Positions 4,615 to 24,778 of a DNA stretch of 32,000 nucleotides are shown piece after piece (position 1 is the first letter of the stretch; the number at the start of each line of letters is the position of its first letter). A program made the position numbers and the translations under genes. Source of the stretch: Candidatus Saccharimonadota bacterium (GTDB taxonomy: Bacteria > Patescibacteriota > Saccharimonadia > Saccharimonadales > UBA4665); contig OY970322.1 in assembly GCA_963716945.1 (NCBI GenBank), positions 480,001 through 512,000 on the forward strand, written 5' to 3'. The notes beneath the pieces are model-generated. The model searched no databases and was not told the origin of the DNA. It saw nothing but the letters and a program-made list of their open reading frames with translations.

Positions 4615-6081
4615 TTAGTGCCTTGTTGCCAAGCGGTGCAGGAAGCGCCTAAACGGCGCCTTTAGCGCTGCACGCATTAATTCAGCATACTGCCTTTCTT
4701 CAGTTTCGTTAAAGGCCAAAAGACGTCCATAAAGAGTGTCCTTTTTGCCGCGCGTCGTATTCACGTATTTCCAAAATGAATCTTTCGGACCGGTGAAACC
4801 GATATCGCTCCTCAGCAACTCTTCCGGTACGCCTAACTTCCCCAGTGTCAGCTTAAGGTCAAGGGTACGCATTGCGGTTCGGCCGTCGCTGCCCTCTCTT
4901 AGATAGAGGCGGGGCAGGCGGCTCTTGGCGCCCAAGCCGTATTTGAGGATGGAGACGGTTATATCCACCTTTGCGCGGTTTTCGGGGTCTAGGCCTTGCT
5001 GCGCTATCATATAGGCCTTGTCAATGAACTGGTCTGGTTGCCGTAGGGCGACGCGGTGCAAGCTTCTGGCCAGAATTTTGCGGCCGTGCAACATTGCCAA
5101 GCCGGTCGCCGAATAGCCGTTAGCAATGCCGTCCTGGCCTAGAATGTCGGCCGTTTCAGTGGGCGATATGTCGGCCGGCAAGGGCCTTGCCAGCTCCAGC
5201 CATTTAGCCACGGTTTCGGCGGTTAGCTGGTCTGCTACATATACTCTTTCCATCAACATGTTAGACAGGGCTGAGAATATCGCGTCGATGCCGGCTTTTG
5301 ACGGATCATCGCCAGCCTGTTCGCTGGCCATGCGGACCGCTTCGGCACGCAATAACGTCAGCACCTCAAAATCATTGACCAATAGCTGAGGGTCATCCAT
5401 AAAGGTTTCCGTCTGGCGGGCAAGCTCGGTCTTGAAACCTTGCTTGGCATGGACGGAAAAATCACGACCCGAACGGTCTATGACCAGCTCTTCGCTTAGG
5501 GCCGTGAAGTTACCGAAGTCCAGGTGAGGAGAGTCCTCGCGAACTTGGCCGATCATTGTCCGGAAACGCTCGCCGTAGGCGGCCTGCCGCTGGGCTGTGG
5601 TTTCGCGGTTGCGCCTGTCGGCCGCGCTAGCGGCGGCTTGCTCGATCGCCAATTCGTCTCGTTGCGCCGCTACATGCCGGTTGTAGGCCTGGGCGCGCTG
5701 GCGGGCCGGCAGCATGGACTTAGCGCCCAATACGGCGTGCCACAGGTAGGGATGGCTATCCTCTGAGACATAGTCTCTCAGCCAGCTCAAGCCGGTTTTA
5801 GCTCCGTCGAAGTCGAAATCATCCGGATGAGCGGCTTTTACGTGGCCTTCCGCTTCGGCGTTCTCGGGATGATCTTCCACATAAACGGCGTCCATGGCTG
5901 CCACCAGGCCGGGCCGGTTAAACATTGACTGTCCGGCTGATTTTATGGGGTGGTCCGTAGGGACCAGCTCTAACGGATCAGGGTGCAGGGTAACGACTAC
6001 CAGCGAGCGGGCGGCCCAATAGTCGACATAGTCTCTATGGTCTTGAAGCATCTCTTGGTAACTATCTGGACCGGCACGCAT
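4615..6081 (-). CDS. Hypothetical protein, paralog B of the tandem pair
   Basis: 488-aa ORF homologous to paralog A along most of its length. No signal peptide, TM segment or known catalytic motif recognised. Visibly AT-richer than the flanking genes. Confidence 0.85.
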   Translation of the reverse strand: MRAGPDSYQEMLQDHRDYVDYWAARSLVVVTLHPDPLELVPTDHPIKSAGQSMFNRPGLVAAMDAVYVEDHPENAEAEGHVKAAHPDDFDFDGAKTGLSWLRDYVSEDSHPYLWHAVLGAKSMLPARQRAQAYNRHVAAQRDELAIEQAAASAADRRNRETTAQRQAAYGERFRTMIGQVREDSPHLDFGNFTALSEELVIDRSGRDFSVHAKQGFKTELARQTETFMDDPQLLVNDFEVLTLLRAEAVRMASEQAGDDPSKAGIDAIFSALSNMLMERVYVADQLTAETVAKWLELARPLPADISPTETADILGQDGIANGYSATGLAMLHGRKILARSLHRVALRQPDQFIDKAYMIAQQGLDPENRAKVDITVSILKYGLGAKSRLPRLYLREGSDGRTAMRTLDLKLTLGKLGVPEELLRSDIGFTGPKDSFWKYVNTTRGKKDTLYGRLLAFNETEERQYAELMRAALKAPFRRFLHRLATRH

Positions 6082-7282: not shown

Positions 7283-7966
7283 ATGATTCTGTTAGACAGG
7301 GTGACAAAAACCTACGGTCGCGATCTGGGTTCGGCACTGGAGCGGGTGACGCTGCACGTCGAGCCGAAAGAGTTCGTAATCGTGGTCGGGCAGAGCGGGG
7401 CGGGTAAGACCACGCTGCTACGACTGCTGACCCGTGAGGAACGTCCGACCAGCGGCAAAATCATCGTCGGCGGCATCGATTACGACAAGCTGAAGGACAA
7501 AGACATCCCGATGTTGCGGCGCAAAATCGGCGTCGTTTTCCAGGACTTCAAGCTGCTGCCCAACCGCAACGTCTTCGAGAACGTCGCCTACGCCCTCGAG
7601 ATCGTCGGCGTCAGTAACCGGGAAATCCGCCACACCGTACCCAAGGTCCTGGATATCGTCAACCTCAAGGGCAAAGAGAAGCGCATGCCGCTGGAACTCA
7701 GCGGCGGCGAACGCCAGCGGGTAGCCATCGCCCGGGCCATTGTCCGCCAGCCGCGCATCCTGATCGCCGACGAACCGACCGGCAACCTCGACCCCAAACA
7801 CGCCTGGGACGTCATCAAAGTCCTTGAGAAAATCAACCGCTACGGCACCACCGTCCTACTGACCACCCACAACCAGGAAATCGTCAACAAACTCAAGCGC
7901 CGCGTCGTCACTATCAAAGACGGCAAAATCAGCAGCGACCGCGCTAACGCCGGCTACAGGGTATAG
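7283..7966 (+). CDS. ftsE: Cell-division ABC ATPase FtsE
   Basis: Walker A GQSGAGKTT, ABC signature LSGGERQR, Walker B ILIADEPTGNLD. 227 aa, immediately upstream of ftsX. Confidence 0.92.
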   Translation: MILLDRVTKTYGRDLGSALERVTLHVEPKEFVIVVGQSGAGKTTLLRLLTREERPTSGKIIVGGIDYDKLKDKDIPMLRRKIGVVFQDFKLLPNRNVFENVAYALEIVGVSNREIRHTVPKVLDIVNLKGKEKRMPLELSGGERQRVAIARAIVRQPRILIADEPTGNLDPKHAWDVIKVLEKINRYGTTVLLTTHNQEIVNKLKRRVVTIKDGKISSDRANAGYRV

Positions 7967-7974
7967 GCGGGATA

Positions 7975-8925
7975 ATGATGCAGCGACGACTCATAACTTT
8001 CTGGCGCATCATTCACACCGGCATCGTTAATTTCATCCGCAACGTCACGCTGGCCACGGCCGCCATCGCCGTCATGGTGGTGACGCTGACGATCGTCCTT
8101 TTTTCGCTCATCACCAACGCCACCTTTTCCAACACCATTGCCCAGATTACCGACAAGATCGACGTCTCGGTTTTCCTGAAAGACTCCGACACGCCGGCCC
8201 AGACCCAGCAGCTTATCAGCCAGATTAAGGCCCTGCCTAACGTCAAAGCCGTTACCTACCTCGACAAAGCTGCCGCCCTCCGCCAGTACGAAGAGCAAAA
8301 CGCCGGCAACCAGCAACTGCTGGAAGCCGTCAGCGTCACCTCCAACCCCTTGCCGGCAACCATCCTCATCAAACCGGTTGACCTGAACAAAATCCAAGAC
8401 ATCAAGAACTTCCTGACCGAGCCCAATGTGGCTGCCTTGCAATCCGACCAGCCGAGCTACAGCGGCGACAGGGAAGCCGCCATCAATAAGATCACCCATG
8501 CCACCGACGTGCTGCGCAAGATCGGCATTGTCACCGTGGCCGTCTTTGCCCTGATTTGCGCGCTGATCATTTTCAATACTATCCAGATGGCTATCTTCAA
8601 CCGGCGCGACGATATCGCCATCATGCGCCTGCTGGGTGCCAGCACCGGCTACATCCGCGGGCCGTTTATCGTCGAGAGTGCCATTTACGGCATACTGTCA
8701 GCCGTCTTTTCGGTCCTGATCGTCAACTCGGCTTTCTTGGCCTCCAGCAACGCGCTGCAGGCCAGCAGCCTAGGCCTGCTCGATATCAACTACGCCAACC
8801 AATATTTCGACGCCCATTTCTGGGGCTTCTTGGGGATCCAGCTAATGCTTGGTATAGTGTTAGGAGCGGTCTCTTCCACTATCGCGACCCGCCGCTACCT
8901 AAAATTCAAGACACCCAAAAACTAA
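7975..8925 (+). CDS. ftsX: Cell-division permease-like protein FtsX
   Basis: N-terminal TM segment, a large extracytoplasmic loop, then three C-terminal TM segments (FtsX topology). Sits 8 nt after ftsE. Confidence 0.9.
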   Translation: MMQRRLITFWRIIHTGIVNFIRNVTLATAAIAVMVVTLTIVLFSLITNATFSNTIAQITDKIDVSVFLKDSDTPAQTQQLISQIKALPNVKAVTYLDKAAALRQYEEQNAGNQQLLEAVSVTSNPLPATILIKPVDLNKIQDIKNFLTEPNVAALQSDQPSYSGDREAAINKITHATDVLRKIGIVTVAVFALICALIIFNTIQMAIFNRRDDIAIMRLLGASTGYIRGPFIVESAIYGILSAVFSVLIVNSAFLASSNALQASSLGLLDINYANQYFDAHFWGFLGIQLMLGIVLGAVSSTIATRRYLKFKTPKN

Positions 8926-8936
8926 TAGGGAGAACC

Positions 8937-8975
8937 GGTAAGCCAGGGGACCTTCCCGGACAGCTTGCCTTTTTT
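8937..8975 (+). terminator. Probable intrinsic terminator after ftsX
   Basis: GGTAAGC (8937-8943) pairs with GCTTGCC (8963-8969) with one G-U pair. The loop holds a GGGGA..TTCCC sub-stem. T6 follows at 8970-8975. Confidence 0.5.
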
Positions 8976-9022
8976 GCTCCCCGCTAAATAATAAAAGGGG
9001 GTACAGACTTGATTAACCGTAG

Positions 9023-9028
9023 TATAAT
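9023..9028 (+). promoter_or_regulatory. Candidate -10 box (TATAAT) for the CHAP hydrolase gene
   Basis: Perfect TATAAT lying inside the ORF-track N-terminal extension (TTG 9009). This argues that ATG 9057 is the real start. Confidence 0.45.
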
Positions 9029-9056
9029 AAAGAGTAGAACTAGCCAAACCAAGACC

Positions 9057-10217
9057 ATGTCAAAAACAAAATCAATTGCCGGTTACTATTTCAAGCTACG
9101 CACCCTGTTATTGCTGTTGACGTTAGGCGGTTTGATGGGTGGCGCTGCGATTGCTCACGCCGACCAGTATGATGCTCAGATCAACTCTCTGCAGAACCAG
9201 AACAACCAGACCCAAAGCATTGTAAGCGGCTTGGCGGCCCAGGCGGGTAGTTATCAGGGGGCGATCAATGTCCTGCAAGGCCAAATAAGTTCGCTGCAAG
9301 CAGCTATACAAGCCAACCAAACCAAGCAGACCGCCATGCAGCAGCAGATTACGGCTGACCAGCAGCAGATTGACCAGAAGAAACAACAACTCAGCGCTAC
9401 TATCAAATCCTTGTATATAGACGGCCAGACCTCTACCATCGAAGAACTGGCCAGCAGCAAAAACCTCAGCGACTATGTCGACAAAGAAGAGTACCGCACC
9501 GCTGTCCAAAACGAGTTAGATGCCAGCATTCAAGAGATCGGCGAGCTGCAAACGCAACTGCAGCAGCAAAAAAGCCAACTCGATGTCGTAGTCAAATCCG
9601 AACAGCAGCAGAACGACCTGCTGGCTAGCGACCAATCCCAACAACAACAGATGCTGGCTTACAACCAGGATCAGCAGGCCGCCTACAATGCCCAAATTGC
9701 ATCTAACCAGAGCAAGATAGCTTCGCTTCGTGCGGCCCAGGCTGCCGCAAACCGCCGCCTGGACGGTTCAGGCCAAATCATCACAAGTGGGTCTTGCGGC
9801 GGCAGCTACCCGGCTTCGGCATCCGGGTCTTACGGCCCATGGGGATGCAACTATGCACACACGAGCGATAACGTACCCGGCTGTTCGTATCAAGATAGCT
9901 GGGGCATGTGCAATCGAGAATGCGTTAGTTATACGGCCTGGATGGTATATAAGACGTATGGCATAAACACTACCGGTTTCGGTAACGCCAATCAATGGCC
10001 GGGCAGTGCCGCGCGGGCAGGTATTCCAACCGGAAGCACGCCTAAAGTCGGCTCAGTTGCAATCTACACGGGAGGCGCATTTGGCCATGCGATGTGGGTT
10101 GTCGGCGTAGATGGCGACCAAGTACATGTTTACTCGTATAACGACGAGTATGATGGCAATTTTTATGATCACTGGGTTAGCGCATCCGGTCTGACCTATA
10201 TCTACTTCGGCGGTTAA
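9057..10217 (+). CDS. Secreted coiled-coil + CHAP-domain peptidoglycan hydrolase (PcsB-like); ORF track start 9009
   Basis: From ATG 9057 there is a signal-like N-terminus (MSKTKSIAGYYFKLRTLLLLLTLGGLMGGAAIAHA). About 230 aa of Q-rich heptad-like sequence follows. The C-terminal CHAP signature has a Cys in NRECVSYTAWMV and a His in FGHAMWVVG. Confidence 0.8.
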   Translation: MSKTKSIAGYYFKLRTLLLLLTLGGLMGGAAIAHADQYDAQINSLQNQNNQTQSIVSGLAAQAGSYQGAINVLQGQISSLQAAIQANQTKQTAMQQQITADQQQIDQKKQQLSATIKSLYIDGQTSTIEELASSKNLSDYVDKEEYRTAVQNELDASIQEIGELQTQLQQQKSQLDVVVKSEQQQNDLLASDQSQQQQMLAYNQDQQAAYNAQIASNQSKIASLRAAQAAANRRLDGSGQIITSGSCGGSYPASASGSYGPWGCNYAHTSDNVPGCSYQDSWGMCNRECVSYTAWMVYKTYGINTTGFGNANQWPGSAARAGIPTGSTPKVGSVAIYTGGAFGHAMWVVGVDGDQVHVYSYNDEYDGNFYDHWVSASGLTYIYFGG

Positions 10218-10241
10218 TTTTAGTCCGCTCCCAACCGCGTT

Positions 10242-10250
10242 TGCTATACT
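10242..10250 (+). promoter_or_regulatory. Extended -10 promoter of the ctp gene (TGcTATACT), 8 nt before ATG 10259
   Basis: TG at 10242-10243 and TATACT at 10245-10250. Confidence 0.55.
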
Positions 10251-10258
10251 GAATACCA

Positions 10259-11467
10259 ATGGGTTTAAAACCAAAAGTCGGTAGGCGCAGTCTGCTCCGG
10301 GGAGTACTCGGTTTAGTATTGCTGGTAGCCGTCTTTTTACTCGGCCTGAATTTCGGCAACGGCCGGCTGAGTGTTACCGTGCCGTGGGGCACCAAATCGG
10401 TCGCCGGCAATTTGCCCAACAGCTTGAACTACACCACCGTCAACCAGGTCTACCAGTCGCTCAAGAGTAATTACGACGGCAAGCTGACCCAAACCCAGCT
10501 GCTCGACGGTCTCAAACACGGCCTGGCCGAAGCCGCCAACGACCCTTACACCGTTTATTTCACCCCGCAAGAAGCCAGTGATTTCAACGACGAGTTGAAT
10601 AACTCGTTCAGCGGTATTGGCGCCCAGCTGGGGCAGGACAGCAACGGCAACCTTGAAATAATCGCGCCGATCGCCGGCCTGCCGGCCGACAAAGCCGGCC
10701 TCAAACCCCAGGACGTCATCACTTCCATCAACGGCACCAGCACCAGCGGCATGTCGGTCGACGCCGCCGTTAACAAAATCCGCGGCCCCAAAGGCAGCAA
10801 GGTCACGCTGCAGATTGCGCGCGGTACCCAGACGCTTAATTTCACCATCACCCGCGACAACATAACGCTGCCCAGCGTGACCACCAAGATACTGCCGGGC
10901 AACATCGGTTATATGCAGATCAGCACCTTCGCGGACGATACCGACAGCCTGTCCCAAAAGGCCGCCGACCAGTTCAAAAAAGATAACGTCAAAGGCATTA
11001 TCCTCGACCTGCGCAACGACCCGGGCGGTCTGCTCGACGCCGCCATCCACGTCTCCAGCCTGTGGCTGCCCCAAGGCCAAAAAATCCTCGACGAAAAGCG
11101 CGGCAGCACCGTCGTCAGCACCAATTACGCTTTGGGCGGCGACGAACTGCACGGCATTCCCACGGTAGTCCTAATCAACAGCGGCAGCGCTTCGGCCAGC
11201 GAGATCACGGCCGGCGCCCTGCACGACAACCACGCCGCCTACCTGATCGGCCAGAAGAGTTACGGCAAAGGTGTCGTTCAGCAACTGATTAACTTCGGCG
11301 ACGGCTCGCAGCTCAAGGTCACGGTTGCCAGCTGGTACCGCCCCGATGGCCAGAATATCAACCACCTTGGCATCACCCCGGATAAGACGGTTAACCTGAG
11401 CGACGCCGACGCCAAAGCCGGCAACGACCCGCAGCTTCAAGCCGCCGAAGCCTACCTCGCGCCATAA
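10259..11467 (+). CDS. ctpA: Carboxy-terminal processing protease (S41 family, PDZ-containing)
   Basis: N-terminal membrane anchor, FSGIGAQLG, a PDZ segment (GLPADKAGLKPQDVITSINGTS), the catalytic-Ser region LINSGSASASEI and the Lys region GQKSYGKG. Confidence 0.9.
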   Translation: MGLKPKVGRRSLLRGVLGLVLLVAVFLLGLNFGNGRLSVTVPWGTKSVAGNLPNSLNYTTVNQVYQSLKSNYDGKLTQTQLLDGLKHGLAEAANDPYTVYFTPQEASDFNDELNNSFSGIGAQLGQDSNGNLEIIAPIAGLPADKAGLKPQDVITSINGTSTSGMSVDAAVNKIRGPKGSKVTLQIARGTQTLNFTITRDNITLPSVTTKILPGNIGYMQISTFADDTDSLSQKAADQFKKDNVKGIILDLRNDPGGLLDAAIHVSSLWLPQGQKILDEKRGSTVVSTNYALGGDELHGIPTVVLINSGSASASEITAGALHDNHAAYLIGQKSYGKGVVQQLINFGDGSQLKVTVASWYRPDGQNINHLGITPDKTVNLSDADAKAGNDPQLQAAEAYLAP

Positions 11468-14296: not shown

Positions 14297-14743
14297 ATGA
14301 GCAGTATGGAAGAACCAGCCTCTAGCCCCGCCCCCCAGCCGATTGCCGAACCCGCCAAAGATACCTCCAAAAACCTCCAGCGTATCCTCCTCGTCGAAGA
14401 CGACGACGCCCTGGCCAATGTTTACGTTACCCGGCTCCAGGCCGAAGGCTTCGACGTCCGCCGAGTTAACAACGGCGAAGAGGCCCTGGCGACCGCTCTA
14501 AGCTACAAGCCCAATCTGATTGTCCTCGATGTCATGATGCCCAAAGTCAGCGGCTTCGACGTCCTCGACATCCTGCGCAATACGCCGGAGACGGCCAACC
14601 TCAAGATCATCATGCTGACCGCCCTCAGCCAGGCCAGCGACCAGGAACGCGCCAAATCCCTCGGCGCCGACGACTACCTCGTCAAATCCCAGGTCGTCAT
14701 CGCCGACGTCATCGACCGCATCCGCCACCACCTCGGCAGCTAA
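14297..14743 (+). CDS. Single-domain CheY-like response-regulator receiver (canonical residues intact); ORF track start 14063 rejected
   Basis: LLVEDDD, IVLDVMMP (phospho-Asp), IMLTA and YLVKS are all present, and there is no output domain. The longer ORF overlaps pyrG in another frame. ATG 14306 is an alternative start, 7 nt after a candidate TTGCCA-17-TAACAT promoter. Confidence 0.85.
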   Translation: MSSMEEPASSPAPQPIAEPAKDTSKNLQRILLVEDDDALANVYVTRLQAEGFDVRRVNNGEEALATALSYKPNLIVLDVMMPKVSGFDVLDILRNTPETANLKIIMLTALSQASDQERAKSLGADDYLVKSQVVIADVIDRIRHHLGS

Positions 14744-14849: not shown

Positions 14850-15509
14850 ATGACAGAACCCACAGCCCCAGCATTCCCATCAGACCACTTTGAATTCCAA
14901 GCCCCGGACGGATTAGCCTTTGAAACGCTTGATCCGGCAAGGAGAGCAGTTATCAATCCCGGCTCTCCAATGGTTGACGAGGGAAGTTATAAGGTCCTAG
15001 CGGAAATCCAGCTGGGCGGTGACGATGACTTTTTGCTGCTCGACGTGCGTGAAAGCCCTCTGGTAGGCCGCTTTGCTTTCCCGTTTGCGGGCTCGGTAGA
15101 GGGTGACAGTATGGCTCTAAGCCCGGGGGTCGACTTTCTTCTGGTCGGCAAGGGCTTTGACCCAGCTAACACCGATATTACTGACGAAACCGGCTACAAA
15201 GCGTTGAGGCAGGGCCAGCCCGTAACCCTTGGACGGACTCATTACGGTGACCGCTTTGACTATTCTGACGAAACTTCCCGCGAGCATGCCGAGGTATCAT
15301 TTGATGATTCTGGCAAGATCACTGTACGCGATCTTAATTCCACAAACGGAACCCGGGTAAAAGCTAGGTCAATCAGGCAAGTTAGCGAGGCAGACTATCT
15401 TACCGATCTTCAAACTGCCGGTTCGCTCAGTGACCATGAACGAAGCGTTCTTAGAGCCCGACTTAAAGGTATAAGAACTCAAAAAGCCCGTGACTTATTC
15501 GGCCATTAG
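14850..15509 (+). CDS. FHA-domain protein with an uncharacterised N-terminal domain
   Basis: C-terminal FHA signature: VTLGRTHYGD...SREHAEVSFDDSGKITVRDLNSTNGTRV (the G-R, S-x-x-H and N-G landmarks). The N-terminal ~120 aa contain no motif I know. Confidence 0.8.
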   Translation: MTEPTAPAFPSDHFEFQAPDGLAFETLDPARRAVINPGSPMVDEGSYKVLAEIQLGGDDDFLLLDVRESPLVGRFAFPFAGSVEGDSMALSPGVDFLLVGKGFDPANTDITDETGYKALRQGQPVTLGRTHYGDRFDYSDETSREHAEVSFDDSGKITVRDLNSTNGTRVKARSIRQVSEADYLTDLQTAGSLSDHERSVLRARLKGIRTQKARDLFGH

Positions 15510-17112: not shown

Positions 17113-18186
17113 ATGAGCGAAAAACACTTTTTGCGGCGGCGGTGGAAGCTGATCCTGAACCTGGTCACGCTGACCGCCCTGGTAGTACTGGTCTACGCTA
17201 TCCGGCACCAGCTGGGGGCGACCTTTGACGACCTCAAGCATGTCAACGGCTGGGCGCTCTTGCTGATGGTGCCGGTTGAAGCGGTCAACTACCACGCCCA
17301 AGCCAAGCTGTACCAGCGGCTGTTCGGCATTGTCGGCAACGACCTGGATTATAAGTTTCTCTACCGGGCGTCGCTGGAGCTGAACTTCGTCAACCACGTC
17401 TTCCCGAGCGGCGGCGTGACCGGCCTGTCGTATTTCGGCGTGCGGATGCGCGACGGTCCCAAGCTGACCGGCGCCAAAGCGACCCTCGTCCACGTCATGA
17501 AACTGGGTTTGACGTTCCTGTCGTTCGAGCTGCTGATTGTCTTCGGTTTGTTCTGCCTGGCGATTATGGGCCGGGTCAGCAACCTGACGATCTTGGTGGC
17601 GGCCGTGGTGTCGACGCTGCTGGTAGTCGGCACGTTCGGCTTCGTTTATATGGTCGGCAGCAAACAGCGCATCAATAACTTCTTTACCAACGCGACACGG
17701 GTTTTGAACCGCCTGATCCAGCTGGTACGGCCGAAACACCCGGAAACGATTAACATCGGGCAAGCCAGGCAGGTATTTGATGACTTCCACAATAATTATG
17801 ATGAAATCAAGAATAGCTACAAGGAGCTGAAAGCGCCGTTCTGGTACGCCTTCCTGGCCAACGTGACAGAGGTCATGGCGATTTATGTGGTCTACATCGC
17901 GTTCGACAAATTCATTAATATCGGCGCCGTCATTTTCGCCTACGCGGTGGCTAATTTCGCCGGCCTGGTGTCGGTATTGCCCGGCGGCGTCGGTATCTAC
18001 GAAGCGCTGATGACGGCCGTGCTGGCCAGTACCGGCGTCGCGGCCGGCGTCAGCTTGCCGGTGACGATTATGTACCGGGTGGTCAACACTCTGATCCAAA
18101 TCCCACCCGGTTATTATCTCTACCAGAAGACGCTGCGGCGGGGCGAGCAGCCGCCCGGCGCGCCCGGAGCGGCCGGTGCCGCCTGA
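17113..18186 (+). CDS. Polytopic membrane protein, flippase-like / lysyl-phosphatidylglycerol-synthase TM-region family (tentative)
   Basis: 357 aa with about 8 hydrophobic helices and a basic N-terminus (RRRWKLILNLVTLTALVVLV). The family assignment is from overall resemblance only. The fully overlapping antisense ORF is a GC shadow. Confidence 0.6.
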   Translation: MSEKHFLRRRWKLILNLVTLTALVVLVYAIRHQLGATFDDLKHVNGWALLLMVPVEAVNYHAQAKLYQRLFGIVGNDLDYKFLYRASLELNFVNHVFPSGGVTGLSYFGVRMRDGPKLTGAKATLVHVMKLGLTFLSFELLIVFGLFCLAIMGRVSNLTILVAAVVSTLLVVGTFGFVYMVGSKQRINNFFTNATRVLNRLIQLVRPKHPETINIGQARQVFDDFHNNYDEIKNSYKELKAPFWYAFLANVTEVMAIYVVYIAFDKFINIGAVIFAYAVANFAGLVSVLPGGVGIYEALMTAVLASTGVAAGVSLPVTIMYRVVNTLIQIPPGYYLYQKTLRRGEQPPGAPGAAGAA

Positions 18187-19324
18187 GGCTGGCAACGATA
18201 TCGAGCTGGGCGTCAGCGACTTCGTGGCGCTGCTTAACCAGACGCTGGAATATGCCTATCCCAGCGTGGTTATTACCGGCGAGTTGGCGAACTTCCGGGT
18301 CAGCAAGAACAAGTGGGTCTATTTCGACCTCAAGGATGAGCTGGCTACTGTCAGGTTTTTCGGGACTATTTACAGTTTGCCGGGGCCGTTGGAGGACGGC
18401 ATGCTGCTGCGGGTCCGCGGCCAGCCGCGGCTGCACCAGCTGTACGGATTCAGCGTCAATGTTTTGAGTATCCAGCCCGCGGGAGAGGGCAGCATCAAAC
18501 GGGCGGCGGCACTGCTGCAGGCCAAACTGGCGGCCGAAGGCCTGTTCGACGAGGCGCGCAAGCGGCCTTTGCCGTACCCGCCGGCCCGTATCGGCCTGAT
18601 TACGTCCCGGCAATCGGCGGCTTACGCCGATTTTATCAAAATCTTGGATGCCCGCTGGCGCGGCGTCGATATCCGGCTAATCGACGTGCAGGTGCAGGGC
18701 GAAGCCGCGCCAGGCCAGATAACCGCTGCCCTGGAGCGTTTCAATAGCGAGGCCGAACCGCCGGAAGTGGTCGTTATTATCAGGGGCGGCGGCAGCGCCG
18801 AAGACCTGGCGGCTTTCAGTACCGAACAGGTTGCCCGGGCCGTCGCCGGCAGCCGCGTGCCGACGCTGGTGGCAATCGGCCACGAAATCGACCTGTCGCT
18901 GGCCGAGCTGGCCGCCGACCGCCGGGCCAGTACGCCCAGCAACGCCGCCGAGCTGTTGGTCCCCGACCGCGTCAAGGCTTTGGCCGAGCTTGGCCAGTAT
19001 AGCGGCGGGCTAGGGGAAGCGGTTCTGCGCCGGCTGCGGACCGCCAACGCCGACCTGGAGCAGCAAACCGTGGCTTTGGAACAGGGGCTCAAGCAGATCC
19101 TGGACCGGGCCGTCTTGGCCGTCAAGAACCAGGCCGGGCTGCTGGAGGCGCTTAACCCGGAGGCCGTCTTGCGCCGGGGTTACGCCATCGTCCGCCGCGA
19201 CGGCCGGCCGGTGCGGACTGTCGGCTCCCTAAGCGGCGGTGGTATAGTTGACGTACAGCTTGGCGACGGCGCTTTCACGGCTACCGTCGACAAGATCAAT
19301 AAATCATCGCCAGGGAGCCTTTAA
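18176..19324 (+). CDS. xseA: Exodeoxyribonuclease VII large subunit
   Basis: N-terminal OB-fold segment (ITGELANFRVSKNKWVYFDLKD), the IIRGGGSAEDL motif and a C-terminal helical tail. Followed directly by xseB. GTG start overlaps the upstream gene by 11 nt. Confidence 0.9.
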   Translation: MPPEAGNDIELGVSDFVALLNQTLEYAYPSVVITGELANFRVSKNKWVYFDLKDELATVRFFGTIYSLPGPLEDGMLLRVRGQPRLHQLYGFSVNVLSIQPAGEGSIKRAAALLQAKLAAEGLFDEARKRPLPYPPARIGLITSRQSAAYADFIKILDARWRGVDIRLIDVQVQGEAAPGQITAALERFNSEAEPPEVVVIIRGGGSAEDLAAFSTEQVARAVAGSRVPTLVAIGHEIDLSLAELAADRRASTPSNAAELLVPDRVKALAELGQYSGGLGEAVLRRLRTANADLEQQTVALEQGLKQILDRAVLAVKNQAGLLEALNPEAVLRRGYAIVRRDGRPVRTVGSLSGGGIVDVQLGDGAFTATVDKINKSSPGSL

Positions 19325-19531
19325 ATGCCTAAAGCAGAGCCCAAACAACCGGCCATAAACTATGAAACGCTCAAGTCCGAGCTGGATACCATCATGACCG
19401 AACTGCAGCGCGAAGACCTGGACGTCGACGCTGCTCTCAAACATTATCAGCGGGGCTTGGAATTGGTCCGCCAGCTGGAGGAGTACCTGGCCAAGGCCGA
19501 AAACCGGGTGGCCGAGCTCAAAGCCAAATGA
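19325..19531 (+). CDS. xseB: Exodeoxyribonuclease VII small subunit
   Basis: 68-aa helical protein (LKSELDTIMTELQREDLDVDAALKHYQRGLELVRQLE). The start abuts the xseA stop (TAA-ATG), with a GGGAG SD. Confidence 0.9.
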   Translation: MPKAEPKQPAINYETLKSELDTIMTELQREDLDVDAALKHYQRGLELVRQLEEYLAKAENRVAELKAK

Positions 19532-20019
19532 TCTGGCTGGCCCTGGTCCTGGGAATTCTGCTGCTCATCTGTTTTGCCGGCGTTCTGCTGGTCGGCGCGC
19601 CGTACCTGCCGACCCTTCACCGGCAAATACGCGCCGCCTTGGAATTAACCGGCCTGAGGCCGGGGGACACGCTGCTGGAGCTCGGTTGCGGCGACGGCCG
19701 GGTCTTGATAGCCGCCGCCCGGCTGGGCTTTGACGTCGTCGGCTACGAACTTAATCCCGTGCTGGCCGTTATAGCCTGGCTCCGGACGCGCCGTTATCGC
19801 CGCCAGGTCAGGGTCATATGGGGTGATTTCTGGCGTAAGCCGTGGCCGCCGGCCGAAGCCATCTTCACCTTCCTGCTGCCGAAATACATGCCCAAGCTGA
19901 ATAAAAAAGTTATGCAATATTCAAACAGACCGGTCAAACTAGTAAGCTTCGCCTTCAAGATTCCGGGCGAGAAGATAGTCGCCGAAAAAGACGGCGTTTA
20001 CCTCTATAAATACTACTGA
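19528..20019 (+). CDS. Membrane-anchored class I SAM methyltransferase, FAM173/ATPSCKMT-like
   Basis: N-terminal TM helix, then GAPYLPT and LELGCGDGRVLIAAARLGFDVVGYELNP (motif I plus an acidic residue). ATGA overlap with xseB. Confidence 0.7.
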   Translation: MIWLALVLGILLLICFAGVLLVGAPYLPTLHRQIRAALELTGLRPGDTLLELGCGDGRVLIAAARLGFDVVGYELNPVLAVIAWLRTRRYRRQVRVIWGDFWRKPWPPAEAIFTFLLPKYMPKLNKKVMQYSNRPVKLVSFAFKIPGEKIVAEKDGVYLYKYY

Positions 20020-20067
20020 GCCGGCGCCTATTTGCCAGCTGCCGCCATCTGAGGTAACATTGACAGT

Positions 20068-20742
20068 ATGTTAAAACATAACCAGGTTGGCGCAATCGGC
20101 GGCGAAGACATATCCTTGACCCTGGCGATCATACTGCTGATAGCTGCGCTGGTTTTTGGCGGCTGGGCCTATAGCAGCCGGCAGGATTATAAGAATAACG
20201 CCGATGTTAAGATCGACAATGCCGTGGCGGCCGCGAAACAGGAACAGAATAAAGTCGACCAAGGCTTTTTCGACGAACAGGCCAAACAGCCGCTAAGGGC
20301 TTATGACGGTCCCCAGGCTTATGGCAGCCTGGTGGTTAATTTCCCCAAGAACTGGAGCGCTTATGTTGACGATAGCGGCACCAGTCTTAACGGCTTGGTT
20401 GACGGCTATTTCGCGCCCGGCACGGTGCCGGCGATTACCAGTCCGACATCGGTTTTCGCGTTGCGGGTGCAGGTGATTAACAAGGCCTATAGCCAGGTTG
20501 TCCAGTCTTTTTCTAAGCAGCAGCAAGCCGGCAAGCTGACGGTTAGCGCTTACGCGCTGCCGAAATTCCCCAAGAACGTCGGCGTGGAAGTCGTCGGTCT
20601 GCTAAGCAAGCAAGCCACCCAGTCGGTGACAATGGTGGTTATACCGCTGCGCTCGGACACGCTGGAGCTATGGACCCAAGGCAGCCAGTATTTGAGCGAT
20701 TTCAACAATAATATTTTGCCCAATTTCAGTTTCTCGCCCTGA
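20068..20742 (+). CDS. N-terminally anchored hypothetical exported protein
   Basis: A single TM helix (LTLAIILLIAALVFGGWAY) followed by a ~180-aa soluble domain. No motif recognised. Confidence 0.7.
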   Translation: MLKHNQVGAIGGEDISLTLAIILLIAALVFGGWAYSSRQDYKNNADVKIDNAVAAAKQEQNKVDQGFFDEQAKQPLRAYDGPQAYGSLVVNFPKNWSAYVDDSGTSLNGLVDGYFAPGTVPAITSPTSVFALRVQVINKAYSQVVQSFSKQQQAGKLTVSAYALPKFPKNVGVEVVGLLSKQATQSVTMVVIPLRSDTLELWTQGSQYLSDFNNNILPNFSFSP

Positions 20743-20828
20743 TATGCCGGCCGGCCTGGCCGGGAACTAACCATCGATCGTTTTTTGAGCTATACTCTAG
20801 ATAGTTAAACGGGGTTCGATAACTGTTT

Positions 20829-21560
20829 ATGGGGAGCGAAGGGTTTGACGCCAAGCCGGTTTTGTCGCAGCGGCTGCTGTTGACGGTGGCCGAGGAGCTG
20901 AAACTGCCCCTGTTGCAGATCGCGCGCCGGGCCGAACAGGGCCAGCTGGACGGCGGCCGGGCCGACTTGTCGGTCATCCGGACGACGGCCGAAGCGGCCT
21001 TGCGGCTGCTCGATAATTATTCGTTAGGTATAAGGTTAGCCCTGGAGCCGCAGCCGATGGCTGTCGAGTCGGTTTCGGTGTCGTCGGTTTTGTATGACGC
21101 CGGGCAGCAGCTGGACGGTTTGGCCAAAAGTTACGGCGTCGAGCTGGAACTGAGCATTGCCGGCCGTTACGGTCCGGTACTGGCGCACCGGCAGGGGTTG
21201 CAGGCGGCATTGGTCAGCCTGGGGGCGGCCTTGATCGAAGCTTTGCCGGCCCAAGCCGACGCCGGCAATGGCGGCCAGCTCAAACTCCGTTTGGCGACCC
21301 ACCGCAGCCGCTACGGCATCGTCGCCGGCCTGTACGCCGACACCAAGCAGGTCAGCAACGAAGCCCTGCAGCACGGCCGCGAACTGCAGAGCCGCAGCCG
21401 CCAGCCGCTAATGGATTTGACCCATACCAGCGGCGCCGGCATTTTCGTAGCCGACACTATCCTGAAAGCCATGAACCTCGACCTGCGGTCTTCGCGGCAC
21501 CGCCGTCTGTACGGCCTGGGTACCGTTTTGCAACCCAATCACCAATTGCAACTGGTTTAA
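20829..21560 (+). CDS. Cytoplasmic histidine-kinase-like protein with degenerate H, N and G1 boxes (pseudo-kinase)
   Basis: LLLTVAEELKLPLLQI aligns to the H-box FLANVSHELRTPL, with Glu22 (nt 20892-20894) in place of His. VLAHRQGLQAALVSLGAALIEAL aligns to the N-box region without the Asn. SGAGIFVADTILKAM aligns to the G2 region. Confidence 0.65.
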   Translation: MGSEGFDAKPVLSQRLLLTVAEELKLPLLQIARRAEQGQLDGGRADLSVIRTTAEAALRLLDNYSLGIRLALEPQPMAVESVSVSSVLYDAGQQLDGLAKSYGVELELSIAGRYGPVLAHRQGLQAALVSLGAALIEALPAQADAGNGGQLKLRLATHRSRYGIVAGLYADTKQVSNEALQHGRELQSRSRQPLMDLTHTSGAGIFVADTILKAMNLDLRSSRHRRLYGLGTVLQPNHQLQLV

Positions 21561-21562
21561 CG

Positions 21563-21949
21563 ATGGCTAAAATTCTCCTGGTCGAACCCGATAATGTGCT
21601 AGCCGAGACTTATTCGGCGGCTCTGGCCGGCGCCGGTTATGAAGTAGCGGTCGCCGCCGGTGCCCAGGCAGCAGTCTCGGCGGCCGATGCTGTCCGGCCC
21701 GACCTGGTCATCCTGGAACTGCAGCTGGTCGAGCATTCGGGCATCGAGTTCCTGTACGAGTTCCGGTCTTATCCGGAATGGCAGGATATACCGGTCCTGG
21801 TCCATACGGCGGTGCCGCCCGGCGAGTTCGAGGGCAGCTGGCAAATCCTGGGCGGGGAGCTAGGCATCGAAGTTTATCTTTACAAGCCCCGGACATCACT
21901 GGCCGGGCTGCTCGGTAATGTCCGCGACCAGCTGTCAGTACCGGCATGA
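21563..21949 (+). CDS. Stand-alone receiver domain with Glu at the phospho-acceptor position (atypical response regulator)
   Basis: ILLVEPDN (in place of DD) and PDLVILELQL, with Glu52 (nt 21716-21718) where Asp is expected. The conserved Thr (VLVHTAV) and Lys (YLYKP) are retained. Confidence 0.8.
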   Translation: MAKILLVEPDNVLAETYSAALAGAGYEVAVAAGAQAAVSAADAVRPDLVILELQLVEHSGIEFLYEFRSYPEWQDIPVLVHTAVPPGEFEGSWQILGGELGIEVYLYKPRTSLAGLLGNVRDQLSVPA

Positions 21950-22641
21950 ACCAAATCATCACCAAAGGTATTGTCCTGAGCCGTACCGATTATGGCGAAG
22001 CCGACCGTATCCTGACGCTGTTGACGCCGGACCAGGGCAAACTCCGCCTGATGGCCCGCGGCGTGCGCCGGCCCAAAAGCAAGCTGGCCGGCGGCATTGA
22101 ATTATTCAGCACCAGCGATATAACTTTCATCCGCGGGCGGGGCGAAATCGGGACCTTGGTCTCGGCCCGCCTAGTCAAATATTACGACAGCATAGTCAAG
22201 GACATCGGCCGTGTCCAGCTGGGCTACGAACTGATCAAAATGCTCAACCGCGCGACCGAGGACCAGCCGGAAGCCGACTATTTCGAGCTGCTGCGCCGGA
22301 CTTTTGAGGCCCTGGACGACCCGGCGGCCAGCCGGGCCCTTATTCGTGTCTGGTTCGAGGCCCGGCTGCTGTACCTGGCAGGGCACTCGCCGAACCTGCA
22401 TAGCGGCATGGACAATCAGAAGCTGAGCCAGGAGGGCGCCTATGAGTTCGATTTCGACGCCATGGCTTTCCGGCCGCGGGCGGACGGCCGTTTCGGGGCT
22501 GCCCACATCAAGACTTTGCGCCTGCTGTTCAGCCACCATCCGCCGCGGACCTTAGCCCAGGTCCAGGGCTTGGAAGGCCTTTTGCCCGATTTGGCACCGC
22601 TGGTGCAGACCATGCTGGCCGCCCACATCCGGCTGCCGTAG
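21946..22641 (+). CDS. recO: DNA repair protein RecO
   Basis: GIVLSRTDYGEADRILTLLTPDQGKLRLMARGVRRPKSKL is a typical RecO OB-fold N-terminus. 231 aa. ATGA overlap with the receiver gene. Confidence 0.88.
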   Translation: MNQIITKGIVLSRTDYGEADRILTLLTPDQGKLRLMARGVRRPKSKLAGGIELFSTSDITFIRGRGEIGTLVSARLVKYYDSIVKDIGRVQLGYELIKMLNRATEDQPEADYFELLRRTFEALDDPAASRALIRVWFEARLLYLAGHSPNLHSGMDNQKLSQEGAYEFDFDAMAFRPRADGRFGAAHIKTLRLLFSHHPPRTLAQVQGLEGLLPDLAPLVQTMLAAHIRLP

Positions 22642-22655
22642 CGCCGCCCGCCCAA

Positions 22656-22684
22656 TTGACAATTTAAGCATAATAATTTAAAAT
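22656..22684 (+). promoter_or_regulatory. Promoter TTGACA-17-TAAAAT, 10 nt before ATG 22695
   Basis: TTGACA at 22656-22661 and TAAAAT at 22679-22684. The surrounding ~40 nt are almost pure A/T. Confidence 0.65.
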
Positions 22685-22694
22685 AATAAATAAT

Positions 22695-23300
22695 ATGACT
22701 GAAAGCTACAAGGGCCAGGAACCCGATAAAGACGCCCCGAAAATCGTTTGCTTGGGGACCGACCCGAGTGATTCTGGCCGGGTAAGTATCGGCCGGCTGT
22801 ATAACCGGCCGGGCCAAGTCTTCGAGCCTGACGCCGACAGGTCAATGAGCGGCGGCCTGCGTTCGTTGGACAGCCGCCACGCCGACACGTCGCTTGGCTC
22901 CGGCCGCGACCGTCCGGAGTCGGAAGGCGTCCTGCTTATCAAGACGAAAGACCAGACTTATTGGGTGGAAAGGGGCGTTCTGATCCATGTCGAAGAAACG
23001 GTTAGAGCCGGCGAAATGGTAGCCGAGGTAGTCGAAGACTCCAGGCCGCGCATTGTAATCGGCGGCGGCTCCTGGGACTATAAGCCGTCCGGCGCACAAC
23101 CGGGTCTGGCCGGCTGGAAAGATATTGGCAACGTAACCGAACTGGCAGTTGACGGCCTGGAGTTCGACAGCAGCCGAACGGCCAAGGAACACCTTGCCCG
23201 GGGCACCATGTACGAAGGCTTCGAGGACGTGGCCATGGACCTAAACTCGGTCGGCGTAAACCCGAGTGTAGATATTGAAGTCATGCTGGCCATGCCGTAG
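22695..23300 (+). CDS. Hypothetical acidic protein (201 aa)
   Basis: ORF starts 10 nt after a consensus-like promoter. No signal peptide or TM segment, and no motif recognised. Confidence 0.7.
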   Translation: MTESYKGQEPDKDAPKIVCLGTDPSDSGRVSIGRLYNRPGQVFEPDADRSMSGGLRSLDSRHADTSLGSGRDRPESEGVLLIKTKDQTYWVERGVLIHVEETVRAGEMVAEVVEDSRPRIVIGGGSWDYKPSGAQPGLAGWKDIGNVTELAVDGLEFDSSRTAKEHLARGTMYEGFEDVAMDLNSVGVNPSVDIEVMLAMP

Positions 23301-23316
23301 CGGTGACGCTTCCCGC

Positions 23317-23345
23317 GTGACACCACCCGATGCTTAGCATATAAT
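23317..23345 (+). promoter_or_regulatory. Promoter GTGACA-17-TATAAT, 8 nt before ATG 23354 (glyQS)
   Basis: GTGACA at 23317-23322 and TATAAT at 23340-23345. Confidence 0.6.
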
Positions 23346-23353
23346 TAGCGGCA

Positions 23354-24778
23354 ATGAGCCAAGAAGTTAGCCTTGAGGATATTGTCAGCCTGTGTAAGCG
23401 CCGCGGCTTTATTTACCAGGGCAGCGAGGTTTACGGCGGCCTGGCCGGCACGTGGGATTACGGGCCGCTGGGCGTCGCTCTCAAGCGCAATATCATGAAC
23501 CTGTGGTGGAAGACGTTCGTCGAAGACCGCGACGACATGCTCGGCGTCGACGCCGCCATTCTGATGAACCAGAAGGTCTGGCAGGCCAGCGGCCATGTCG
23601 ACACTTTCACCGACCCGCTGGTGGAATGTTCCAACTGCCACAGCCGTTTCCGGGCCGACAAGATCGACCTTGGCAAATGCCCGAATTGCGGCCAGGAGAA
23701 GACGTTCGGCGAACCGCGGCAATTCAACATGATGTTCAAGACGAAGGTCGGCCCGCTGGCCGACGACATCCATCTGGTCCTGGACAAGGGCTTCATCGAC
23801 ATGGTCAGCCAGGAGTTCGCCGATAAGGGCACGACTCAAAAAGCAATAACTCTCTCCGAAAAGCAGCTCGACCACGGCGGCGATTACGTTTCCTACCTGC
23901 GGCCCGAAACCGCCCAAGGCATTTTCACCAACTTCAAAAACGTCGTCGACAGCTTCTACCCGGACCTGCCGTTCGGTATCGCCCAGCAGGGCAAAGCCTT
24001 CCGCAACGAGATCAGCCCGCGCGATTTCGTCTTCCGCTCGCGCGAGTTCGAACAGATGGAAATCGAATATTTCGTCCATGAAAACGAGTGGCAGGAAGCT
24101 TTTGAAAAATGGGTCACCGACATCGAAGCTTTCCTGCGGCAACTCGGCCTGCCGGATAACAAAATCCACAAACTGGAAGTCCCGGACACCGACCGCGCCC
24201 ACTACAGCAAGCGCACCATCGACTTCGAATTCGATTTCCCGGTCGGCCGCGACGAGCTCCTGGGCCTGGCTTACCGCACCGACTTCGACCTCCGGAATAT
24301 TCAGAAAGCCTCGGGCAAGAGCATGGAATACCGGCCCAAAGACGGTGCCCCGGCCTTCGTACCGCACGTCATCGAACCGAGTTTCGGCGTCGAACGGGCC
24401 ATCATGGCCGTCCTCAGCTCGGCCTACACCGAAGACGAAATCAACGGCGAAAAACGGACCTACCTCAAGCTGCCGCCCCACATAGCGCCGGTCAAAGTCG
24501 CCGTCTCACCGCTTCTCAAGAACAAACCCGAACTCGTCGCCAAAGCCCGCGAAGTCTACACCATGCTGAAGAAGGAATTCGGCGCCGTCATGTGGGACGA
24601 CAACGGCAACATCGGCAAACGCTACCGCCGCCAGGACGAGATCGGCACGCCGTACTGCGTCACCATCGACTTTGACACTCTCGAAGACGACACCGTCACC
24701 GTCCGCTCCCGCGACACCACGGAGCAAAAGCGCTGCAAAGTAGCCGAGCTTAACCAGGTTTTGCACACTCCAGAGTAA
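23354..24778 (+). CDS. glyQS: Glycine--tRNA ligase, dimeric (alpha2) class II type
   Basis: RRGFIYQGSEVYGGLAGTWDYGPLG, the zinc-ribbon-like insertion CSNCHSRFRADK...CPNCG, YLRPETAQGIF (motif 2 region), SFGVERA (motif 3 region) and a C-terminal anticodon-binding domain. Confidence 0.95.
   Translation: MSQEVSLEDIVSLCKRRGFIYQGSEVYGGLAGTWDYGPLGVALKRNIMNLWWKTFVEDRDDMLGVDAAILMNQKVWQASGHVDTFTDPLVECSNCHSRFRADKIDLGKCPNCGQEKTFGEPRQFNMMFKTKVGPLADDIHLVLDKGFIDMVSQEFADKGTTQKAITLSEKQLDHGGDYVSYLRPETAQGIFTNFKNVVDSFYPDLPFGIAQQGKAFRNEISPRDFVFRSREFEQMEIEYFVHENEWQEAFEKWVTDIEAFLRQLGLPDNKIHKLEVPDTDRAHYSKRTIDFEFDFPVGRDELLGLAYRTDFDLRNIQKASGKSMEYRPKDGAPAFVPHVIEPSFGVERAIMAVLSSAYTEDEINGEKRTYLKLPPHIAPVKVAVSPLLKNKPELVAKAREVYTMLKKEFGAVMWDDNGNIGKRYRRQDEIGTPYCVTIDFDTLEDDTVTVRSRDTTEQKRCKVAELNQVLHTPE

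Follow-up and report, generated by a model that had tools for sequence, protein, structure and literature searches.

The window analysed here is a stretch of 32,000 nucleotides (nt) from a Candidatus Saccharimonadota bacterium (contig OY970322.1, positions 480,001 to 512,000 of the forward strand). In its second half, a block of genes on the same strand, assigned by open reading frame (ORF) calls together with Pfam and NCBIfam, leads from an LPG-synthase-like gene and the genes for exonuclease VII to the glycyl-tRNA synthetase gene glyS. Within this block, directly before the DNA-repair gene recO, lie two small genes that encode a kinase-like protein of 243 amino acids (pHK) and a receiver of 128 amino acids (pRR). 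A membrane protein of 224 amino acids (TM224) is encoded upstream of the pair. The evidence supports the view that pHK and pRR are selected pseudo-enzymes of the two-component type which, judging from their sequences, have neither the phospho-His nor the ATP-binding boxes nor the phospho-Asp. All relatives of pHK that carry names belong to Saccharimonadales or Saccharibacteria.

The kinase-like protein and the receiver

Searches with the single pHK sequence gave no match in Pfam, NCBIfam or the PDB, and a profile built from 45 close relatives (72-89% identity) likewise matched nothing in the PDB. The AlphaFold2 (AF2) model (pLDDT 78.6, pTM 0.81) consists of a helical hairpin (helices at residues 8-40 and 45-72) and, after it, an alpha/beta sandwich. 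When this model was compared with the PDB by Foldseek, the top 50 matches were all DHp-CA cores of histidine kinases (probability 1.00, ~235 columns), among them ZraS (6.7e-9), CpxA, HK853 (TM 0.63), GacS, and the pseudokinases RetS and DivL. More than 1251 relatives were found, and an exhaustive profile search collected 447 clusters at 50% identity, all ~230-250 amino acids long. A profile of 135 divergent relatives, taken from these clusters and used for all pHK column counts below, matched CpxA (3e-8), DivL (2.9e-7), GacS (6e-6), and HK853 (8.5e-5) in the PDB. Pfam HisKA is weakly matched by 25 of the 135 members on their own, with a best value of 6.3e-5, and HATPase_c by only one. The predicted fold, the structural matches and the divergent profile therefore agree, and show by modelled structure and remote homology that pHK is a DHp+CA histidine-kinase core, a layout that the first-pass annotation had proposed from the letters of the DNA. 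More than 1,200 'hypothetical proteins' that are missed by Pfam and NCBIfam thereby gain a fold and a family. In the model, the DHp helix begins at residue 8, so that the protein has no input region, be it a sensor, a transmembrane (TM) segment, HAMP, or PAS.

The same annotation had also reported that the catalytic landmarks of this core are gone, with Glu22 in place of the phospho-His, no Asn in the N-box, a degenerate G1 box and only a G2-like motif remaining, and the alignments bear this out. In the H-box, the family sequence 'laEqLklPl' aligns to 'isHELRTPL' of CpxA and 'vsHDLRTPL' of EnvZ. Glu22 thus falls on the column of CpxA His248 and EnvZ His243, which is the Tyr column of DivL. A misalignment of the H-box by a few residues is ruled out, since the CpxA, EnvZ, and DivL alignments agree independently. 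Column 22 contains Glu in 114 sequences, Gln in nine, Asp in eight, and Arg, Ala, and Tyr in one each; His occurs in none of the 135. Of all helix surfaces in the family, that of the H-box helix is the most strongly conserved. At the next position (23, or H+1), His is found in 8/135 members, for example in 'VEHLKLPL' of a lineage with 33% GC (L085, 4001-4672). Although no other His lies close to the old site, this one is probably not a functional acceptor, and there is no conserved His in the DHp domain of the 135 sequences. Most members have also lost the HisKA phosphatase motif E/DxxT/N, position 26 (H+4) being Leu in 69, Gln in 15, Val in 12, and Thr in 11 members.

The CA-like domain has diverged in a similar way. 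The N-box 'LvsLGys' aligns to 'LENIVRN' of CpxA, and the Asn of the CpxA 'RNA' corresponds to Ala134 of pHK; across the family, the column of this Mg-ATP ligand is occupied by Ser, Ala, Val, Thr, Gly, or Glu. The place of the G1 motif DxGxG is taken by A170-D-T-K-Q174, which follows the strand 164-170, a placement derived from the strand/helix topology and a manual alignment. What is kept is the G-x-G of the G2 box, where S-G202-A-G204-I-F aligns to T-G-L-G-L-A of CpxA and EnvZ, and Pro193 of the F-box, where 'RQPL' aligns to 'FRPF' of the same two kinases. The lid (residues 190-200) is modelled with low AF2 confidence. The CA-like domain can presumably no longer bind ATP-Mg and, because the motifs are lost, neither kinase nor phosphatase chemistry would be expected of pHK.

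The receiver is recognised more readily. pRR matches the Pfam Response_reg model with 41.8 bits (cut-off 30.2; E-value in Table 1), and 70 receivers in the PDB are matched at E<=1e-3. Its nearest relatives in NCBIfam and the PDB are receivers of the OmpR/PhoB family (PhoB, YycF, PmrA, MtrA), and it has no DNA-binding domain. In alignments to YycF and RR468, the segment 'pdlvilELql' lies on 'pdlilLDiml', so that E52 falls on the phospho-acceptor Asp, E8-P9 on the acidic DD pair, T82 on the conserved Thr, and K108 on the conserved Lys, just as had been read from the sequence before. The first acidic position (DD1) is Glu8 and thus still acidic, the second (DD2) is Pro9, and both are invariant. 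When the window and 71 other species were compared (72 sequences), E8, P9, D10, E52, Q54, L55, H58, G60, Y107, and K108 were found to be invariant, position 82 was always Ser (38) or Thr (34), and the beta3-alpha3 loop with helix alpha3, H-S-G-I-E-F-L-Y-E-F-R-S-Y, was almost unchanged. Glu52 is also kept in three divergent loci with complete receivers (L085-L087) and in a truncated one (L081). A pseudo-receiver has been defined as a receiver lacking at least one of five active-site residues, and the commonest pattern combines an acidic DD1, loss of DD2, replacement of D by Glu, and retention of T and K (PMC12632262). pRR lacks D and DD2 and has the same pattern.

Because the defining features of active histidine kinases and response regulators were tested for and are absent, the two proteins fall outside these families; pHK belongs to the pseudo-histidine kinases and pRR to the pseudo-receivers. 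It might be argued that the pair still carries out phosphoryl or other chemistry of a non-canonical kind, for example through another His or an acyl-phosphate on Glu. The pocket of pRR retains Thr, Lys, and one acidic metal ligand, pHK retains the G-x-G of the G2 box and the F-box Pro, and some pHK members have a His at H+1. However, the whole pHK family has lost the Asn for ATP binding and the G1 box, the H+1 His is rare and points ~100 degrees round the helix, no His is conserved in the DHp domain, and DD2 is Pro. Retained chemistry is thus very improbable.

Gene order and conservation

The main synteny set consists of 80 loci from distinct GTDB species (L001-L080), in which the order xseA-xseB-methyltransferase-TM224-pHK-pRR-recO-(glyS) is near universal. 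The pHK-pRR pair is found across Saccharibacteria whose GC content ranges from 33 to 61%. Three divergent members (31-36% identity; locus GC 33%, 45%, and 54%) keep pHK-pRR-recO-glyS together with the key residues, although one of the three has Gln at the His column of pHK. The two genes always occur together (72 or more loci), and their spacing is between -4 and +10 nt in nearly all species. In the window, the junction reads TAA-cg-ATG, a gap of 2 nt, and the stop of pRR overlaps the start of recO as ATGA; both junctions are as first annotated. The tight coupling to recO is conserved, since the 4-nt overlap (GTGA or ATGA) with pRR is present in 60/68 species.

Among nine genes compared, pHK has the highest mean identity (69%), followed by xseA (66%), glycyl-tRNA synthetase (GlyRS; 65%), pRR and RecO (61% each), and, as the lowest, TM224 (53%). 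pHK is thus more conserved than a tRNA synthetase in genomes of ~1 Mb, where few dispensable genes would be expected to last. Conservation across species rules out gene decay as an explanation for the missing residues. Both genes are under strong purifying selection, and their operon coupling with recO is conserved. Of the two substitutions, Glu52 is present in 72/72 receivers and Glu22 in 114/135 pHK members, and His never occupies the pHK column.

Table 1. Features of the same-strand gene block around pHK (17113-24778), in window coordinates
Feature	Position	Strand	Basis or remark
LPG-synthase-like gene	17113-18186	+	
xseA (exonuclease VII)	18176-19324	+	
xseB (exonuclease VII)	19325-19531	+	
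Small membrane-anchored methyltransferase	19528-20019	+	
TM224, membrane protein, 224 amino acids	20068-20742	+	
86-nt spacer 5' of pHK	20743-20828	+	GC hairpin CCGGCC...GGCCGG and TATACT -10-like hexamer, read from sequence
pHK, standalone pseudo-histidine kinase (DHp and degenerate CA), without sensor or TM segment	20829-21560	+	ORF, AF2, Foldseek, profile
DHp-like helical hairpin, residues 8-72; H-box A21-E22-E23-L24-K25-L26-P27-L28	20850-21044	+	AF2 helices, CpxA/EnvZ alignment
GAG codon of Glu22, phospho-acceptor His column	20892-20894	+	Alignment to CpxA His248, EnvZ His243, DivL Tyr
Degenerate CA (HATPase_c-like) domain, residues 80-236	21066-21536	+	Secondary structure, alignments, column composition
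pHK C-terminal tail N237-H-Q239-L-Q-L-V243-COOH, past the canonical CA fold	21537-21557	+	Family conservation
pRR, single-domain pseudo-receiver (aspartate-less), 128 amino acids, without output domain	21563-21949	+	Pfam PF00072 1.3e-10
GAA codon of Glu52, phospho-acceptor Asp column	21716-21718	+	YycF and RR468 alignment
recO	21946-22641	+	RecO_N PF11967 5e-23, RecO_C PF02565 1.7e-7, TIGR00613 2e-27
Sigma-70-like promoter match, strong, 3' of recO	22656-22684	+	TTGACA-17-TAAAAT, 11/12
Strain-specific ORF, 201 amino acids	22695-23300	+	
Glycyl-tRNA synthetase (glyS)	23354-24778	+	

RecO itself has both the RecO_N OB fold and RecO_C. In addition to the strong promoter match downstream of recO, promoter-like matches lie 5' of TM224 (20032-20060, 9/12) and 5' of glyS (11/12), and a scan of the window found no terminator-like sites above chance expectation. 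Taken together, these matches delimit a unit (TM224)-pHK-pRR-recO, of which the match after recO probably marks the 3' boundary. The spacer upstream of pHK, with its hairpin and hexamer, is a possible internal promoter or start of transcription; the promoter scan returned no site in it. Its length varies between species, mostly from 15 to 241 nt, with outliers of 488 and 894 nt. Rfam and tRNA scans found no RNA genes in the window.

Given that pHK has no input region, TM224 had been suggested as the missing sensor. This suggestion is rejected on the grounds of fold, topology, variable spacing to pHK, and absence in L085, a lineage that keeps pHK-pRR. Only ~16 cytoplasmic residues precede the single TM helix. 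The model (pLDDT 82.7) shows a long helix, then a domain that matches cyanobacterial PsbP (7.1e-4), with further fold matches to LpqN of M. tuberculosis, Apa, DcrB, and EagT6, which points to an envelope protein of the PsbP/LpqN/DcrB kind and does not correspond to any sensor module known from two-component systems. TM224 has 769 relatives and is covered by no Pfam or NCBIfam model. It starts with the invariant M-x-K-H-N-Q-x-G, continues with a TM/stalk helix (residues 12-72), and ends in the PsbP/Mog1/LpqN/DcrB-like domain. Its leader is not a prepilin signal, as there is no conserved Phe or Met at +1 or Glu at +5.

The small methyltransferase gene upstream of TM224 starts 4 nt inside the end of xseB. 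Its product is a class-I enzyme with an N-terminal hydrophobic helix and is weakly similar to protein-lysine methyltransferases. Its rate covariation with pHK (0.46) is the second highest of the gene pairs compared.

A possible interaction module without phosphate

The reading that we favour, with moderate confidence, is that pHK and pRR form a minimal two-component pair in which the phosphoryl chemistry has been lost on both sides and which has been kept as a protein-protein interaction module. pHK would supply a DHp dimerisation hairpin and a CA-like domain without input, and pRR a receiver domain without output. Conservation is centred on the former site of phosphotransfer, that is, on A-E-x-L-K-x-P-L in pHK and on E-P-D, E52-L-Q-L, H-S-G, S/T82, and K108-P in pRR, where it is concentrated on the active-site loops and alpha1. 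From this distribution we infer that pHK still dimerises and that pRR docks in the classical way, with its alpha1 face against alpha1 of the DHp domain.

Several details of such a complex can be proposed. Glu52 might act with the retained Thr and Lys to hold pRR in an active-like state, as replacement of D by E does in several regulators. Glu22 of pHK may stand in trans in the place of the phosphoryl group and form a salt bridge to Lys108; alternatively, it may share a metal with Glu8, Asp10, and Glu52 of pRR. Either arrangement would be a permanent mimic of the phosphotransfer complex. With no input or output domains and no phosphate, output would have to pass through surfaces of the pHK-pRR complex, the candidates being the invariant alpha3 of pRR (EFLYEFRSY) and the Q-L-x-L-V tail of pHK, one or both of which could act on a partner protein. 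The ancestor was likely a system of the OmpR/PhoB type such as CpxAR, WalKR, or PhoRB.

Four points weigh against this reading. Firstly, although the evolutionary rates of pHK and pRR covary (partial r 0.36, p=0.0005 against permutation; seven syntenic genes in 46 sequences, namely the window and 45 species), the value does not exceed those of the syntenic pairs xseA-recO (0.52) and methyltransferase-pHK (0.46). Secondly, Gln, Asp, or another residue occupies the His column in 21/135 pHK members. Thirdly, Glu as a mimic of phospho-His is not a proven substitution. Fourthly, for certain other pseudo-receivers, the idea of phosphomimicry has been disproved (PMC12632262). Retained binding of pHK to pRR and a phosphomimetic role of their Glu residues are proposals.

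Both halves have known counterparts. Around 0.9% of HisKA domains lack the His (PMC12632262, PMC12963549, bioRxiv 10.1101/812529), and the pseudo-histidine kinases DivL and PsmA act by binding (bioRxiv 10.1101/812529, PMC12963549). DivL of Caulobacter resembles pHK in having a HisKA-type DHp and CA without the phospho-His, which is Tyr in DivL, and it binds a single-domain receiver, DivK. Unlike pHK, DivL is large, membrane-associated, and equipped with PAS domains, DivK is truly phosphorylated, and DivL acts on CckA. In pHK-pRR, by comparison, both partners are dead and neither has an extra domain. In PsmA of Streptomyces, a hybrid pseudokinase, the H-box His is replaced by Glu in the S. venezuelae protein, the ATP motifs are degenerate and E/DxxT/N is lost; PsmA shows no autokinase activity and works by binding DivIVA (PMC12963549). 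Unlike pHK, it is a fusion of 1300 amino acids in which PAS domains and a receiver with an intact Asp are combined with a long disordered linker (PMC12963549). PsmA orthologues also differ from one another at the His column, which is near-fixed in pHK. RetS of Pseudomonas, a non-canonical kinase, is similar to pHK in structure and blocks GacS by heterodimerisation; it signals through DHp contacts and not by phosphotransfer to a cognate regulator. As a hybrid sensor, however, it also carries periplasmic and receiver domains, and it acts on another kinase.

On the receiver side, the Glu-type pseudo-receivers, which include plant PRRs, fungal Rim15p, and bacterial ALRs, share with pRR the change of D to E, the loss of DD2, and the retained T and K (PMC12632262). 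The characterised bacterial ones are nearly all orphans and usually have output domains, whereas pRR is a single domain encoded 2 nt after a pseudo-kinase. Only two of 20 characterised bacterial atypical regulators are non-orphans, and how bacterial pseudo-receivers switch was called 'a mystery' in a 2025 review (PMC12632262). In sequence, both halves are most closely related to the OmpR/PhoB-type systems (CpxA-CpxR, WalK-WalR, PhoR-PhoB), which likewise have adjacent genes. Here, by contrast, the kinase-like gene comes first, and sensor, TM segment, HAMP, DNA-binding domain, His, Asp, and ATP boxes are all missing.

In the literature, we found no description of a cognate pair that is dead on both sides, nor of the pHK family, and nothing relevant on two-component or Tn-seq data for the pHK and pRR genes in Saccharibacteria. 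Pseudo-kinases and pseudo-receivers are thus known separately; what is new is a cognate-looking, doubly dead pair without input or output domains. Being highly conserved and stripped of other domains, it offers a clean natural system for the interface between kinase and receiver in the absence of phosphate.

The precedents of RetS and DivL also raise another scenario, in which pHK and pRR do not form a closed pair but separately modulate genuine two-component proteins whose genes lie elsewhere. By analogy with RetS and GacS, pHK might then form a heterodimer with a real kinase or titrate it; alternatively, on the model of DivL and DivK~P, it might bind a real receiver in its phosphorylated form. 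pRR, for its part, would compete for a real kinase. Both in structure and by profile, RetS and DivL rank among the best matches of pHK, and the wiring of pseudo-histidine kinases and pseudo-receivers into real networks is the documented mode (PMC12632262, bioRxiv 10.1101/812529). A candidate partner of pHK lies 6 kb upstream, namely an orphan, single-domain receiver of 148 amino acids (14297-14743). It had been annotated as fully canonical, and it does have the DD pair, D, T, and K and matches RpaA with E=1e-21. The 32-kb window encodes no canonical histidine kinase, however, and pHK and pRR invariably occur together with almost no spacing between their genes, which suggests a cognate pair, as does the fact that the H-box face and the active-site face of the receiver are the most conserved parts of the two proteins. 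We therefore regard this scenario as unlikely and continue to favour the closed pair.

The canonical receiver is directly followed on the same strand by a gene for an FHA-domain protein (14850-15509), and the two may represent a link to Ser/Thr-phospho-peptide signalling.

The C-terminal tail of pHK and neighbouring genes

A feature of pHK that was absent from the first-pass annotation and is newly noticed here is its C-terminal tail, Q-L-x-L-V-COOH. The tail extends seven residues past the end of the CA fold, where '...VLQP' aligns to 'WLPL' of CpxA. Its Gln239 is the most conserved column of the entire family (135/135). The pattern is S-x-Q-[LM]-x-[LF]-[VIL], in which position 2, counted from the Gln, is Leu in 123, Met in 11, and Ile in one member; position 3 is freely variable and polar; position 4 is Leu in 119, Phe in nine, Met in four, and Ile in three; and position 5 is Val in 85, Ile in 28, and Leu in 13. 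The protein ends exactly at position 5 in 116/135 members, and the conservation of the tail amounts to 95% in 81 sequences. No conserved motif of this kind was found in the other syntenic proteins.

The bacterial clamp-binding motif Q-phi-x-L-F may be C-terminal with a free carboxylate, and its position 5 is one of the three most important positions (bioRxiv 10.64898/2026.05.27.728225). The tail of pHK agrees with this motif at positions 1-4 (Gln, aliphatic, x, Leu), while at position 5 it has Val, Ile, or Leu in place of Phe, and it also lacks the alternative Leu at position 6. It is therefore a lead, a candidate beta-clamp-binding motif that fails one defining feature. Given the translational coupling with recO and the nearby exonuclease VII genes, the lead is tempting: pHK might be an adaptor of DNA metabolism whose tail binds the beta-sliding clamp, tethers pHK and pRR to DnaN, and links them to RecO and exonuclease VII. 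Such a role is compatible with the interaction module favoured above, of which it would be the output arm. It would fit the position of the tail outside the CA fold, the invariance of its Gln, the Q-aliphatic-x-L/F-V/I/L pattern at the very end of most members, the uniqueness of the motif among the syntenic proteins, and the conserved overlap with recO. However, apart from the mismatch at positions 5 and 6, the rates of pHK and pRR covary little with that of recO (0.21-0.23), and the tail could just be packed against the domain, as the mean pLDDT of residues 231-240 is 84 in the AF2 model. Furthermore, the recO-glyS neighbourhood is probably ancestral synteny, as in the operons of Firmicutes, and its linkage with pHK may be incidental. 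On balance, we consider an adaptor role improbable. In its fullest form, a pseudo-kinase dimer, locked to its pseudo-receiver by the Glu-Glu mimic, would ride the clamp by means of the tail and control the loading or activity of RecO, and perhaps exonuclease VII; this picture is quite doubtful. Even so, the coupling to recO and the clamp-motif-like tail provide a concrete functional lead in an uncultivated, host-dependent lineage.

Downstream of recO, the spacer to glyS ranges from 9 to 1393 nt between species. In the window, it contains the 201-amino-acid ORF of Table 1, which is without a Pfam match and has no counterpart in the 80 related loci; it is probably an insertion specific to the strain, with a promoter of its own, the strong match that follows recO. 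For glyS, the GlyRS identities to the window are bimodal among the 80 loci, at ~46-53% and 64-80%, and GlyRS distances are uncorrelated with those of neighbouring genes (r ~0.2 as against 0.6-0.75). This pattern suggests either that GlyRS exists in two lineages among these species or that transfer has replaced it in some of them.

Elsewhere in the window, two large minus-strand ORFs, 2828-4324 (498 amino acids) and 4615-6081 (488 amino acids), have no Pfam match. They are followed on the plus strand (7283-11467) by a cluster of genes for cell division and the cell wall, comprising an FtsE-like ABC ATPase, an FtsX with an extracellular domain, a CHAP-domain protein of 402 amino acids, and a C-terminal processing protease of the S41/PDZ type. 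The arrangement of this cluster resembles that of FtsEX-hydrolase modules.

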